Positions 1,700 through 16,560 of a DNA stretch of 16,817 bases are shown one piece after another. Within the stretch, counting starts at the first letter, position 1, and every line of letters begins with the position of its first letter. The notes under the pieces are model-generated. The model was not told the DNA's origin and ran no database searches. It saw only the letters and a list, made by a program, of their open reading frames with translations. A program made the translations under genes and the position numbers. The DNA comes from a virus (lineage: Duplodnaviria > Heunggongvirae > Uroviricota > Caudoviricetes). The DNA lies in the IMG/VR virus record IMGVR_UViG_2675903409_000002; one strand, written 5' to 3'.

Positions 1700-2221
1700 G
1701 GTGCAGGTGTTGGCCAGCATGATACGTCCCGGAAAAACAGCGCCATCTGTTTCCGTCGGCGTGGACAGTACAAAAGAGGCACTCACCGCGCTCAGTTCGC
1801 TGCACTGCTCAATGCGCCAGCGGCTGATCACCTCCTGCTCCGGATCGGCGTCACTGTTTCCGTTGACGAAGTTCACCGCATCCAGAAAACGGGCGTAAAC
1901 CTTACGCCGGACCACCGTTCCGCCGACCAGACTCTGTAGATCTTCCGCCATCCCGGTGACCATACCGTACAGGTTAGAAACCATCAGCGTGGGGCGCGTA
2001 CTGGTGCCTTTGCCATTCAGTTCAAAACCACTCCCCTGAATGGGATACGGCTGATACTGTCGCCCCTGCCAGGTGACCGGCTCACCTTTTTCGTTCTGCT
2101 CATTACAGAAAAAATAACGTTCTCCACCGACCTCTGTCAGATCGATTTCCCAGAGCACCACGCTGGCCGACTGCTCCGCACGGGTGCATTCATTCAGTGT
2201 TTCCTGCCGGATATCCTGCAT
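1523..2221 (-). CDS. L: Tail tip protein L; 3' end hidden inside N-run 1450-1699, so the end coordinate is an estimate for a 232-aa protein
   Basis: ATG at 2221-2219; translation MQDIRQETLNECTRAEQSASVVLWEIDLTEVGGERYFFCNEQNEKGEP... matches lambda gpL. Visible to 1700; stop not observable. Confidence 0.85.
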
Positions 2222-2550
2222 CAGTTCACCACCTGTTCAAACTCTGCGCTGAACTCAACACGCAGCATACTGACCCGCGACGACCATTTTGCGCAGGTCA
2301 CCTTTATCTGCCGCCACTCATAAGGCGGCGTCCACAGAAAGGCTTTCCAGCCCCCGTGCTCTTCCAGAAACGACTCCAGTACCATGGCCTCCTCACGGGG
2401 GACAGAAAGCGTCACGCTGTACGTTTTCAGGTTGGCATTCAGCCCGGCAGGCGCTCGCTGGGAATAGCCATCACCAAAGCGCACCTTTCTTACAGAAGGG
2501 GCCGAAGCCACATCCATACCGGGTTTCACTTTCCAGCGGAAGGTTTTCAT
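2221..2550 (-). CDS. M: Tail tip assembly protein M (109 aa)
   Basis: ORF track 2221..2550; MKTFRWKVKPGMDVASAPSVRKVRFGDGYSQRAPAGLNANLKTYSV...; ATG at 2550-2548; abuts the L start at 2221. Confidence 0.95.
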   Translation of the reverse strand: MKTFRWKVKPGMDVASAPSVRKVRFGDGYSQRAPAGLNANLKTYSVTLSVPREEAMVLESFLEEHGGWKAFLWTPPYEWRQIKVTCAKWSSRVSMLRVEFSAEFEQVVN

Positions 2551-5116
2551 CGTCCACCTCCGGAGAACAGGCCACCATCACGCATCTGTGTCTGAATTTC
2601 ATCACGGGCACCCTTGCGGGCCATGTCATACACGGCCTTCATCATCTGTGGACCTGGCAGACCATTCGTACCGTCGTTCTGAATCACCACGTGATTGTTC
2701 TGATTAAAATTAATGCCTTCAGCCCGCCGCATCTGCGCCGGACTTCCGGCACCGCCCACATAACCACCTTCCGCATAGCCGCGCATCAGCCGGTAGAGAT
2801 TCCCCACGCCAATCCGGCTGGTTGCCTCCTTCGTGAAGACAAATTCACCACGGTGAACAATCCCCGCTGGCTCATATTTGCCGCCGGTTCCCGTAAATCC
2901 CCCGGTTGCAAAATGGAATTTCACCGCAGCGGCCTGAATGGCTGTACCACCTGACGCGGATGCGCCGCCACCAACAGCCCCGCCAATGGCGCTGNNNNNN
3001 NNNNNNNNNNNNNNNNNNNNNNNNNNNNNNNNNNNNNNNNNNNNNNNNNNNNNNNNNNNNNNNNNNNNNNNNNNNNNNNNNNNNNNNNNNNNNNNNNNNN
3101 NNNNNNNNNNNNNNNNNNNNNNNNNNNNNNNNNNNNNNNNNNNNNNNNNNNNNNNNNNNNNNNNNNNNNNNNNNNNNNNNNNNNNNNNNNNNNNNNNNNN
3201 NNNNNNNNNNNNNNNNNNNNNNNNNNNNNNNNNNNNNNNNNNNNAGCTGGTCTTCAGCCGCCCAGGTCTTTTTCTGCTCTGACATGACGTTATTCAGCGC
3301 CAGAGGATTATCGCCATACTGTTCCTTCAGGCGCTGTTCCGTGGCTTCCCGCGCTGCCTGCCGGTCAGTCAGCCCCCGGTTTTTCGCATCAATGGCTGCC
3401 CGTTTTGCCCGTTGCTGCTGTGCGAATTTATCCGCCTGCTGCGCCAGCGCATTCAGGTGCTCCTGATACGTAACCTTGTCACCAAGTGCAGCCAGCTGGC
3501 GTTTGTACTCCAGCGTCTCGTCTTTATGCGCCAGCAGGGATTTCTCCTGTGCGGACAGCTGGCGACGTTGTGCCGCCTCCTCCAGTACCGCGAACTGACT
3601 TTCTGCCTTCCACAAATCCCGGCGCTGCTGGCTGATTTTCTCATTCGCTCCGGCATGCTTCTCCAGCGTCCGGAGTTCTGCCTGAAGCGTCAGCAGGGCC
3701 GCATGAGCACTGTCTTCCTGACGATCGCCCGCATACACCTTCACGCCGGACTGTTTCGGCTTTTTCAGCGTCGCTTCATAATCCTTTTTCGCCGCCGCCA
3801 TCAGCGTGTTGTAATCTGCCTGCAGGATTTTTCCGTCTTTCAGTGCCTTGTTCAGTTCTTCCTGACGGGCGGTATATTTCTCCAGCGGCGTCTGCAGCCG
3901 TTCGTAAGCCTTCTGCGCCTCTTCGGTATATTTCAGCCGTGACGCTTCGGTATCGCTCTGCTGCTGCGCATTTTTGTCCTGTTGACGCTGTTGATCTACC
4001 CTCTTTTGGGCTGCATCCCGCTCCAGGCGTTTTTTTTCACGATCATCCCAGTAACGCGCCCGTGCTTCATCGTTAACGAAATAATCATCCTTGCGCAGAT
4101 TCCAGATGTCGTCTGCTTTCTTAAACGCAGCCTCTGCCTTAATCAGCATCTCCTGCGCGGTATCAGGACGACCAATATCCAGCACCGCATCCCACATGGA
4201 TTTGAATGCACGTGCAGTCCTGTCTGCCCAGGTCTCCAGCGTGCCCATGTTCTCTTTCAGGCGGCGGGTCTGGTCATCAAACCCTTTCGTTGCGGCCTCG
4301 TTCGCCGCCTGCAATGCCCCGGCTTCATCGCCGGAACGCTGCAACTGAGCAACATACGCAATCTGCTCCGCCGTCACGTTATGGAACTGGCGTGCCATCG
4401 CCGTCAGCCCCGACGTCGGGTCTGTGGTCAGCTTCCCGAAGGCTTCAGCGACCTTGTCCACCTCCACGCCGGATGCATAGGAGAAACGCGCCACACTCTG
4501 GCTGATGGACGCAATCTGAGCCTCACCGCTTACCCCCGCCTTAACCAGTGCGCTGAGTGACTCGCTGGTCTGGTTAAACGTCAGCCCTGCCGCCTGCCCG
4601 GCTCTGGACAGGACCAGCATACGATCTGCCGTCAGTCCCGCCTGATTACCGGAAAGGACCAGCGTTTTGTTGAAATCGGACAGGGTTGAGTTGNNNNNNN
4701 NNNNNNNNNNNNNNNNNNNNNNNNNNNNNNNNNNNNNNNNNNNNNNNNNNNNNNNNNNNNNNNNNNNNNNNNNNNNNNNNNNNNNNNNNNNNNNNNNNNN
4801 NNNNNNNNNNNNNNNNNNNNNNNNNNNNNNNNNNNNNNNNNNNNNNNNNNNNNNNNNNNNNNNNNNNNNNNNNNNNNNNNNNNNNNNNNNNNNNNNNNNN
4901 NNNNNNNNNNNNNNNNNNNNNNNNNNNNNNNNNNNNNNNNNNNGCTTTCTGTGCAGCCAGCGCCTGTCGGCTCAGCGACTGTTCAACGACTGCCGCTGTT
5001 TTTTTCGCATCACTTTCCGTACCGGAAAAATGACGCCTGACTCTGGCCATCTGCTCGTCAAATCTGGCCGCATCCAGACTCAAATCAACGACCAGATCGC
5101 CTACCGGTTCAGCCAT
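2547..5116 (-). CDS. H: Tail tape-measure protein H; interrupted by two N-runs, and the three visible segments are in three different reading frames
   Basis: N-terminal segment MAEPVGDLVVDLSLDAARFDEQMARVRRHFSGTESDAKK (from 5116); middle segment ...MLVLSRAGQAAGLTFNQ...EQKKTWAAEDQ (4620 down to N-run); C-terminal segment ...AAVKFHFATGGFTGTGGKYEPAGIVHRGEFVF...GGGR ending at TGA 2549-2547 overlapping the M start. Span 2570 nt against 2562 nt expected for 853 aa. Confidence 0.85.
2995..3244. other. N-run inside H (C-terminal third)
   Basis: 250 consecutive n. Confidence 1.
4694..4943. other. N-run inside H (N-terminal part)
   Basis: 250 consecutive n. Confidence 1.
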
Positions 5117-9920: not shown

Positions 9921-10526
9921 TTACACTGGTGTGTTCAGCAAATCGTTAACGGCATCAGATGCCGGGTTACCTGCAGCCAGCGGTGCCGGTGCCCCCTGCA
10001 TCAGACGATCCAGCGCAGTGTCACTGCGCGTCTGTGCACTCTGTGGTGCTGCGGCCAGAATACGGCGGGCCGTTTCCACGGTCATACCGGGGGTTTCGGC
10101 CAGCACGCGTGCCTGTTCTTCGCGTCCGTGAGCCTCCTCACAGTTGAGGATCCCCATAATGCGACTGTTTTCTGCCGCAACCGCTGCGGTGATCTGCGCG
10201 TTCACGTCCGGCTGCGCCGCGCTGGCGTTCTCGCCCTCCGTCGCTTGCACCACGCCAGTAACGTCAGCCTGCGAAGCAGTGGCTGAAACAGTTGTTGATT
10301 GAGTCTCTTTGGTCATTCGCCCTCCTGAGAGACGGGATTTACGTGCATCCAGTGCATCACGCATGACGGTGATCGCATCGGTACTGTTAACAAGTTCATC
10401 AGCCAGTCCGGCATCAATGGCCTCCTGACCGCTGTACACTGCAGCCTCGGTATCCAGCACAGCCTGCACGGACAGGCCGGTATATGCCGACACCTTCTGT
10501 GCAAACATCCGGCGGGTTGCATCCAT
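9921..10526 (-). CDS. Nu3: Capsid scaffolding protein Nu3 (201 aa), nested in frame in the 3' third of C
   Basis: Internal ATG at 10526-10524 in the C frame gives MDATRRMFAQKVSAYTGLSVQAVLDTEAAVYSGQEAIDAGLADELVN..., 201 aa, sharing the C stop. Confidence 0.85.
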   Translation of the reverse strand: MDATRRMFAQKVSAYTGLSVQAVLDTEAAVYSGQEAIDAGLADELVNSTDAITVMRDALDARKSRLSGGRMTKETQSTTVSATASQADVTGVVQATEGENASAAQPDVNAQITAAVAAENSRIMGILNCEEAHGREEQARVLAETPGMTVETARRILAAAPQSAQTRSDTALDRLMQGAPAPLAAGNPASDAVNDLLNTPV

Positions 10527-11240: not shown

Positions 11241-14924
<3,684 letters not shown>

Positions 14925-14950
<26 letters not shown>

Positions 14951-15470
14951 TCAGCAACCCCGGTATCAGTTCATCCAGCGCGGCTGCTTTGTTCATGGCT
15001 TTGATGATATCCCGTTTCAGGAAATCAACATGTCGGTTTTCCAGTTCCGGAAAACGCCGCTGCACCGACAGGGGGATCCCGTCGAGAATACTGGCAATTT
15101 CACCTGCGATCCGCGACAGCACGAAAGTACAGAATGCGGTTTCCACCACTTCAGCGGAGTCTCTGGCATTTTTCAGCTCCTGTGCGTCGGCCTGCGCACG
15201 CGTAAGTCGATGGCGTTCGTACTCAATAGTCCCTGGCTGGAGATCTGTCTCGCTGGCCTGCCGCAGTTCTTCAACTTCCCGGCGCAGCTTTTCGTTCTCA
15301 ATTTCAGCATCCCTTTCGGCATACCATCTTATAACGGCGGCAGAGTCATAAAGCACCTCATTACCCTTGCCACCGCCTCGCAGAACGGGCATTCCCTGTT
15401 CCTGCCAGTTCTGAATGGTACGGATACTCGCACCGAAAATGTCAGCCAGCTGCTTTTTGTTGACTTCCAT
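14925..15470 (-). CDS. Nu1: Terminase small subunit Nu1 (181 aa)
   Basis: ORF track 14925..15470; MEVNKKQLADIFGASIRTIQNWQEQGMPVLRGGGKGNEVLYDSAAVIRWYAERD...; ATG at 15470-15468. Confidence 0.96.
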
Positions 15471-15489
15471 TGTTCATTCCACGGACAAA

Positions 15490-15615
15490 AACAGAGAAAG
15501 GAAACGACAGAGGCCAAAAAGCCCGTTTTCAGCACCTGTCGTTTCCTTTCTTTTCAGGGGGTGTTTTAAATAAAAACATTAGGTTACGGCGAAGAAGAAC
15601 GGAAACGCCTTAAAC
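15490..15615 (-). other. cosB: terminase (Nu1) binding elements R1, R2, R3 with an intervening AT-rich IHF-type segment
   Basis: Three copies of the CGTTTCC-type element read on the minus strand: near 15495-15510 (CTGTCGTTTCCTTTCTCTG, R1), 15541-15556 (inverted, GAAAGGAAACGACAG, R2) and 15592-15610 (GGCGTTTCCGTTCTTCTT, R3), at lambda-like spacing upstream of Nu1. Confidence 0.8.
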
Positions 15616-15647
15616 CGGAAAATTGTCATAAATAGCGAAAACCCGCG

Positions 15648-15659
15648 CGCCTTCCGCCC
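15648..15659 (-). other. cosN: 12-nt cohesive-end segment of the joined cos site, variant sequence
   Basis: Minus strand reads ...CAGGTTACG | GGGCGGAAGGCG | CGCGGGTTTTCGCTATTTATGA.... Both flanks match the lambda cos junction from memory; the 12-mer reads GGGCGGAAGGCG where lambda has GGGCGGCGACCT. Confidence 0.75.
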
Positions 15660-15700
15660 CGTAACCTGTCGGATCGCCGGAAAGGACCCGCAAAATGATA
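15660..15700 (-). other. cosQ-containing region on the right-end side of cosN (position approximate)
   Basis: Positional homology to the last ~40 bp of the lambda right end (…CCGGAAAGGACCCG…GATCCGACAGGTTACG); the exact cosQ element is not delimited. Confidence 0.45.
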
Positions 15701-15710
15701 ATAATTATCA
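15696..15710. promoter_or_regulatory. Perfect 7-1-7 inverted repeat TGATAAT-A-ATTATCA (Fur-box-like candidate operator)
   Basis: Read directly: 15696-15702 TGATAAT, 15703 A, 15704-15710 ATTATCA, exact reverse complements. About 150 bp upstream of the plus-strand ORF starting at 15859. Confidence 0.3.
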
Positions 15711-15858
15711 TCTACATGTCACAACGTGCATCTACGCCATCAAACCACGTCAAATAATCAATTATGACGCAGGTATCGTATTAATTGATCTGCATCAACT
15801 TAACGTAAAAACAACTTCAGACAATACAAATCAGCGACACTGAATACAGGGCAACCTC

Positions 15859-16092
15859 ATGTCAACGAAGAACAGAACCCGCAGAACAACAACCCGCAAC
15901 ATCCGCTTTCCTAACCAAATGATTGAACAAATTAACATCGCTCTTGTTCAAAAAGGGTCCGGGAATTTCTCAGCCTGGGTCATTGAAGCCTGCCGCCGGA
16001 GACTGTGCTCAGAAAAAAGAGTTTCGCCTGAAGCAAACAAAGAAAAGAGTGACATTACTGAATTGCTCAGAAAACAGGTTAGACCAGATTGA
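15859..16092 (+). CDS. Small hypothetical protein, YbcW-like / lambda right-end ORF homologue (77 aa) with a divergent C-terminus
   Basis: ORF track 15859..16092; MSTKNRTRRTTTRNIRFPNQMIEQINIALVQKGSGNFSAWVIEACRRR.... The first ~50 residues match the small ORF I recall next to cos in lambda and DLP12 (ybcW); the tail LCSEKRVSPEANKEKSDITELLRKQVRPD differs. Weak SD (aggg). Confidence 0.6.
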   Translation: MSTKNRTRRTTTRNIRFPNQMIEQINIALVQKGSGNFSAWVIEACRRRLCSEKRVSPEANKEKSDITELLRKQVRPD

Positions 16093-16149
16093 AGCAATTT
16101 AGATAATCGTGCAGACTACGCCCCCTCATATCACATGGAAGGTACTACA

Positions 16150-16560
16150 ATGGCTCAGGTTGCCATTTTTAAACAAATATTCGATAAAGTGCGAAATAAT
16201 TTAAACTATCACTGGTTTTATTCTGAACTAAAACGTCACAATGTCTCACATTACATTTACTATTTAGCCACAGAGAATATTCATCTTGTTCTTGAAAACG
16301 ATAATACGGTTTTAATAAAAGGACAGGGTAAGGTTGTAAATGTAAGATTTTCAAAAAATAAATGCCTTATAGAAGCCACCTTAAAAGGATTCAAATCAGG
16401 AGAGTTATCATTTTACGAATACAGGAAAAATCTTGCTACAGCAGGGGTTTTCAGATGGATTACAAATATCCACGAAAACAAAAGGTATTACTATACCTTT
16501 GATAATTCATTACTCTTTACTGAGAACATACAGAACACTACACAAATATTTCCGCACTAA
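16150..16560 (+). CDS. DUF1398-family protein, YbcV/YdfO-like (136 aa)
   Basis: ORF track 16135..16560; I prefer the second ATG at 16150 because GGAAGG lies 7 nt upstream. [67 protein letters not shown]...[39 protein letters not shown] resembles E. coli prophage proteins YbcV/YdfO from memory. Visibly AT-rich against the GC-rich late genes. Confidence 0.65.

Follow-up and report, generated by a model that had tools for sequence, protein, structure and literature searches.

A probable Fur-binding palindrome that accompanies cosQ in most lambda-type phages

A perfect 7-1-7 inverted repeat, TGATAATAATTATCA, stands beside the packaging-termination site cosQ in the window studied here, a 16,817-nucleotide stretch of DNA from a lambda-type phage or prophage whose head genes are encoded by the minus strand. 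Taken as a whole, it seems likely that this repeat is a high-affinity Fur site and a modular companion of cosQ which lambda-type cos regions can dispense with; less certainly, it may serve locally in the repression of a promoter facing cos. One Fe2+-Fur dimer would recognize the 19-bp 9-1-9 palindrome AATGATAATAATTATCATC, and further dimers could occupy overlapping sites shifted by 6 bp, as has been published for the DLP12/Qin sequence. The box would belong to the cos region and not to the adjacent accessory genes. In the flank class represented by the window, it would cover the -10 hexamer and spacer of a predicted promoter facing cosQ, cosN, cosB, and Nu1, and Fur together with iron would repress leftward transcription into the terminase genes (the Escherichia coli K-12 copies are catalogued as nohA/nohB Fur sites). 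That one of the strongest Fur sites of K-12 lies upstream of the Nu1 homologues of the DLP12 and Qin prophages is known already; the comparison presented here adds that the box occurs in lambda, phi80, N15, and most of the lambda-type cos regions listed, whatever its distal flank.

The palindrome and its position beside cos

The right end of lambda (48502) aligns to window position 15660, and since the lambda record ends there, the 12-nt cohesive-end sequence is placed at 15648-15659. For cosQ, the exact lambda coordinates are those reportedly given by Wieczorek and Feiss (2001). The relevant features are as follows.

14925..15470, minus strand: terminase small subunit Nu1, homologue of K-12 nohA and nohD/nohB (Pfam Phage_Nu1, E = 2.4e-101; Nu1 in matching phages)
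15471..15647, minus strand: putative cosB region (Nu1-binding repeats, I1/I2), assigned by homology only, as one stretch between cosN and the Nu1 start
15648..15659, minus strand: cosN cohesive end, variant GGGCGGAAGGCG (lambda: GGGCGGCGACCT), from alignment with DLP12, Qin, and lambda
15683..15689, minus strand: cosQ, the packaging-termination site, AGGACCC on the window strand (lambda top strand: GGGTCCT), placed by homology to the right end of lambda
15694..15712, no strand: 9-1-9 Fur site of 19 bp, AATGATAATAATTATCATC, the single-dimer unit in the model of Chen et al.
15695..15722, minus strand: predicted sigma-70-like promoter, GTGACA-16-TATCAT (consensus scan, 10/12 matches)
15696..15710, no strand: Fur box core, TGATAATAATTATCA, identical to the DLP12 copy and the centre of the published 25.3-bit cluster
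15859..16092, plus strand: YlcI/YnfO-family ORF, DUF3950, the first accessory ORF (Pfam E = 2e-20; RefSeq annotation of matching loci)
16135..16560, plus strand: YbcV/YdfO-family ORF, DUF1398 (Pfam E = 3.3e-43)

The perfect repeat that the initial annotation had described at 15696-15710 is present there. Its placement next to cos is accurate, with the lambda right end at 15660 and cosQ at 15683-15689, and its mention of a similar repeat at the right end of lambda is borne out by TGATAATGATTATCA, found on the window strand at the same place (about lambda 48452-48466). The box starts 6 bp past cosQ, a highly conserved sequence of 7 bp (PMC4669245), and is 37-51 bp from the cos nick. The putative cosB stretch is about 90-96% identical to lambda-type phages, and among 5426 complete E. 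coli genomes, 4024 carry the 300 bp surrounding the box, with 7402 occurrences in all. The cohesive end differs from that of lambda (GGGCGGAAGGCG versus GGGCGGCGACCT) at five bases, all within cohesive-end positions 7-12, the half that is free to vary among lambda-like phages (PMC4669245); the same variant was seen in one other viral contig (L091). Masked runs of N at 1450-1699, 2995-3244, and 4694-4943 (250 bases each) and at 13480-13730 (251 bases) interrupt the head/tail gene region, so that ORF calls across them are unreliable.

By sequence, the repeat is a Fur recognition palindrome, as the 7-1-7 and 19-bp consensus comparisons and its identity to a published 25.3-bit site indicate. It matches the 7-1-7 Fur consensus TGATAATnATTATCA at 14 of 14 positions. 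Positions 15691-15709 match the classical 19-bp Fur box GATAATGATAATCATTATC at 16 of 19, the highest value in the window, the next independent match reaching 13 of 19. Shuffles of the window that preserve dinucleotides give an expectation of 0.01 occurrences for the exact 15-mer. Two further perfect 7-1-7 palindromes were found, CGGCATCAGATGCCG (9950-9964) and CGCAGTGTCACTGCG (10014-10028), which lie 64 bp apart in the head-gene region, are GC-rich, and have no relation to the Fur box. A perfect 7-1-7 palindrome as such is thus no rarity in the window, and the notable feature is the match to the Fur consensus. With canonical Fur boxes (the 19-bp box, the 7-1-7 form of Baichoo and Helmann, and the 9-1-9 form of Chen et al.) the window box shares the core, the AA/T-rich outer positions, and the unconstrained centre. 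In contrast to these, it is not at an iron-uptake promoter, and nothing but a phage packaging site is conserved next to it.

Fur binding at the E. coli K-12 prophage copies

Chen et al. scanned the K-12 genome with an information-theory model of Fur sites (Chen et al. 2007, PMC2189734). Their 'nohB' cluster, at old coordinate 579824, reaches 25.3 bits and ranks third genome-wide; it was predicted at this score and carries no gel-shift mark in their Table 4. Their 'nohA' site scores 22.3 bits at old coordinate 1634624 and is accompanied by a second site 6 bp away. An oligonucleotide with the nohA site was shifted by 150 nM Fur, and nohA was picked as a predicted Fur-controlled promoter (PMC2189734). 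As cited by Chen et al., a nohA fragment had come out of the in vivo selection of Fur sites by Vassinova and Kozyrev (2000), and for nohB the reference given is to the Fur titration assay by Stojiljkovic et al. (1994). Later papers place nohB among Fur-regulated genes. In the ChIP-seq data of Myers et al. (2013), obtained with an FNR antibody, a summit is reported at 1634625 and nohA falls in the class of Fur-bound operons. This FNR summit is 1 bp off the centre of the Qin box, and peaks are seen at nine other Fur-bound operons as well; it may stem either from FNR itself or from the co-recovery of DNA bound by Fur.

Two copies of the box are present in K-12, one in each of the cryptic prophages DLP12 and Qin. 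Window positions 15691-15730 (40 bases, including the 19-mer AATGATAATAATTATCATC) are identical to DLP12, and the Qin copy departs from the 19-bp site of the window in a single base, the central one. For the DLP12 region, the offset between K-12 sequence versions is assumed to be 777. The centre of the DLP12 box (L001 1102) is NC_000913.3 580601, or U00096.2 579824, which is the coordinate of the 'nohB' cluster. An offset of 777 fits the homologous -233 geometry at nohA, although -133 is printed for nohB in the table of Chen et al. The centre of the Qin box (L002 2101) is NC_000913.3 1636600, or old 1634624, which is the coordinate of the 'nohA' site; here, the conversion uses an offset of 1976, derived from the position of nohA in Chen et al. 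compared with NC_000913.3. With the coordinates converted in this way, both published sites are centred exactly on the palindrome. The bit score assigned to the window box is accordingly the published DLP12 score, carried over by sequence identity.

Since the window site is identical or nearly identical to sites with published Fur binding, binding of Fur at this element is already known. Publications on it, for this sequence or one almost identical, go back to 1994-2007, and Fur would be expected to bind the window copy likewise. The Fur-site reading put forward in the initial annotation therefore holds, given the consensus match, the identity of the 19-bp site to the DLP12 'nohB' cluster, and the gel shift of the Qin 'nohA' copy (PMC2189734); its remark that no function had been described does not, in view of those same publications. 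The K-12 nohB/nohD (DLP12) and nohA (Qin) sites are the same element, placed alike with respect to cosQ, cosN, and the Nu1 homologue. The K-12 copies reside in decayed cryptic prophages, whereas in the window the lambda-type head and terminase region is apparently intact and the cohesive end is a variant one. Furthermore, the K-12 literature treats the site as the operator of a host promoter, without discussing cos.

Conservation of the box across lambda-type cos regions

When viral contigs were scanned for the core of cosQ, at least 116 usable loci were obtained, and the counts that follow are among the loci listed. The box, defined by at least 11 of 14 matches, adjoins cosQ in 99 of 116 and is perfect in 69. 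No locus scores 9 or 10, so that the distribution of box scores is bimodal, and the remaining 17 cosQ-bearing contigs (about 15%) are without a box. Box and cosQ are 3 to 8 bp apart, most often 6. Fourteen unrelated classes of distal flank carry the box, or sixteen once reference phages are added. Across 40 unique contexts among these loci, there is hardly any variation at arm positions 2, 3, 5, 6, 11, 13, and 15, most variation is at the central base (A 23, G 16, T 1), and AA and T(T/C) are favoured at the outer positions, in keeping with the 9-1-9 Fur model. The comparison anchored on cosQ gives the following boxes.

Window and DLP12: TGATAATAATTATCA
Lambda (about 48452-48466) and Qin: TGATAATGATTATCA
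Stx1a phage: TGATAATGGTTATCA
PhiR12_2_star: TGATAATGATTGTCA
HK225: CGATAATAATTATCA
PhiR57_1, PhiR47_2, and ev017: CGAGAATAATTATCA
phi80: TGATAATAATTATCA
N15: CGATAATAGTTATCG

The window, DLP12, lambda, and Qin constitute a lambda-like flank class. The distal flank is unrelated to that of the window in the Stx1a phage, PhiR12_2_star, HK225, PhiR57_1, PhiR47_2, ev017, phi80, and N15, and in the latter two the gene next to the box (gp59) is unrelated to YlcI and oriented toward cos. Matches to distant phages often stop at the outer edge of the box (window 15710-15716), and others stop just past cosQ. The box marks the boundary of the exchanged cos module. Its conservation pattern is that of a selected binding site for a protein dimer, with cos as the only constant neighbour. 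That such a pattern is maintained whatever lies distally suggests that phages have been selected to keep the box. Homology breaks between lambdoid lineages recur within a few bases of the outer box edge in several of the loci compared (L004-L009, L013).

Despite this conservation, cos regions without the box exist. The phages 4A7 and IdasGreatGrand have a lambda-type cosQ and cosN and unrelated sequence where the box would be; in IdasGreatGrand an annotated small-terminase gene adjoins cos, and the neighbours in 4A7 are annotated only as hypothetical proteins. The largest box-less class, with 10 contigs among those listed, has AlpA, gpD-like and gpE-like capsid genes, and SSB near cosQ and lacks Nu1. 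Because of these flanks and the missing Nu1, the elements of this class are probably phage satellites relying on a borrowed lambda-type terminase, and satellites with a lambda-type cos are of a kind that has been reviewed (PMC9026076). The absence of the box from 4A7, IdasGreatGrand, and the satellite-like elements indicates that packaging does not require it. Elements that combine a lambda-type cosN and cosQ with the absence of both box and Nu1 include L029 (about 1900-5100), L040, L071, L075, L088, L091, L114, and others. The satellite-like elements also carry an 80-aa ORF, with no Pfam match, at the expected place of an Rpp-like gene.

Possible roles of the site

The predicted minus-strand promoter points through cos toward Nu1, and its -10 hexamer and spacer are inside the Fur box. 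This arrangement agrees with the literature, in which the site is assigned to the Nu1 homologues nohA and nohB. Iron-dependent occlusion of a cos-facing promoter is the most likely local effect of the box in the window, and is held with much less confidence than Fur binding because it cannot explain the conservation of the box in other contexts. In lambda and Qin the -10 of the overlapping promoter is weaker (TATCAC). When one representative of each of the 16 flank classes was scanned by the same criteria as the window, a cos-facing promoter-like site was found over the box in 4 of 16 and a plus-strand one in 2 of 16. Since the overlap is confined to four classes, repression of this promoter does not account for the persistence of the box next to cosQ when the contexts are unrelated. 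An overlapping promoter as the conserved partner of the box was accordingly ruled out. In the lambda-like flank class itself the predicted promoter would have to be active, and its repression may be the function under selection there.

The initial annotation had proposed that the box could be an iron-responsive operator of the transcription unit of the first accessory ORF. This would be the rightward unit formed by the YlcI/YnfO-family and then the YbcV/YdfO-family ORF, and Fur would repress a promoter reading away from cos into these genes, which are expressed in lysogens. The box is indeed 149-163 bp upstream of the YlcI-like ATG, in the same intergenic stretch, and the GATAAT within it looks like a -10 hexamer. 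Iron-regulated phage cargo genes, such as stx1, exist elsewhere. However, the consensus scan found no plus-strand promoter-like site overlapping the box in the window, and the box keeps its place at cosQ even when unrelated sequence follows it and homology ends just past it (Stx1a phage, HK225, PhiR57_1, and others), as also in phi80 and N15 with their unrelated gene directed toward cos. The literature, moreover, assigns the site to nohA/nohB, on the other side. As a general explanation, an operator of YlcI was ruled out, the box following cosQ into contexts without that gene, and for the window we consider the accessory-operator proposal improbable. A full-text literature search for Fur together with ynfO found nothing. 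In one study of K-12 under copper stress, ybcV was strongly down-regulated and iron-acquisition genes were up-regulated; this is opposite to what a Fur-repressed gene would do and weighs slightly against the proposal. In DLP12, ybcW separates ybcV from ylcI. It is far less probable still, to the point of being barely credible, that the box is a chance AT-rich palindrome, hairpin, or cruciform without a protein-binding role. AT-rich palindromes are common near phage ends, and a single strand of the box can form a 7-bp hairpin. This fold is weak, though, at -3.3 kcal/mol with nearly all pairs A-T, the exact 15-mer is rare by the shuffling estimate given above, and the box is kept in many unrelated contexts, where its variation follows the pattern of a protein site and not that of compensatory changes in a stem. 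In addition, the K-12 copies are associated with a published gel shift and, as reported by Chen et al., an in vivo selection (PMC2189734), and this Fur binding already contradicts a chance palindrome.

A further proposal, unlikely on the present evidence, is a role in packaging or DNA entry. Fur or another palindrome-binding protein, bound just before cosQ in the direction of translocation, would aid termination or else act on the right end; for example, a bound protein might slow the motor as cosQ arrives. In the 14-16 unrelated contexts among the loci listed, nothing but cosQ/cosN is constantly next to the box, mosaic breakpoints fall just outside its distal edge, and the 55-bp 'cosQ; aka R4 region' of phi80 contains it. 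Termination, furthermore, requires recognition of cosQ and cosN by the moving complex, and a host factor, IHF, has an established role inside cos (PMC4669245). Against this stand the position of the box at 15696, outside the 7-bp cosQ (PMC4669245), and its presence in most but not all lambda-type cos sites, 4A7, IdasGreatGrand, and the satellite-like elements having cosQ and cosN without it. Also, its distance from cosQ is not fixed, with 3-8 bp among the loci listed. The cosQ-cosN spacing, by comparison, is critical. No paper naming both cosQ and Fur, and none connecting Fur with cos, was found by full-text search of the literature for these two terms. The suggestion in the initial annotation that the repeat is part of the packaging signal is therefore not upheld, given its place outside cosQ, its variable spacing, and its absence from isolated lambda-type cos phages; as part of cosQ proper, the box was ruled out by position, variable spacing, and dispensability.

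A related idea, to which we assign a low probability, is that Fur is an unrecognized host accessory factor of lambda-type cos that couples an event at the chromosome end to the iron state. The event could be a pause of the motor that aids recognition of cosQ and cosN, the protection or handling of the entering right end, or the titration of Fur by replicating DNA, and the 'nohA/nohB promoter' annotation would then be incidental. In the direction of packaging, the motor meets the box immediately ahead of cosQ, about 40 bp from the right end. Lambda DNA enters a new host with its right end leading. Should Fur influence packaging, DNA entry, or the expression of terminase, phage production would be linked to the iron status of the host; if it does not, the case would be one for caution, as members of a 'host regulon' that reside in prophages can be phage cis-elements.

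The box can also be compared with the established cos elements. The IHF site I1 in lambda cosB is likewise a site for a host DNA-binding protein within a lambda-type cos (PMC4669245). I1, however, lies across cosN, with R3 and R2 on either side of it, and its part in the initiation of packaging has been demonstrated, whereas the Fur box is dispensable in some phages. The box adjoins the cosQ/R4 region at 3-8 bp and is co-inherited with it. Nevertheless, cosQ is an asymmetric 7-bp sequence required for termination and the Fur box is a separate palindrome outside it. In the phi80 record, the feature 'cosQ; aka R4 region' spans 55 bp at 46084-46138 (L010 385-439) and takes in the Fur box, so that users of the database may read the box as part of cosQ.
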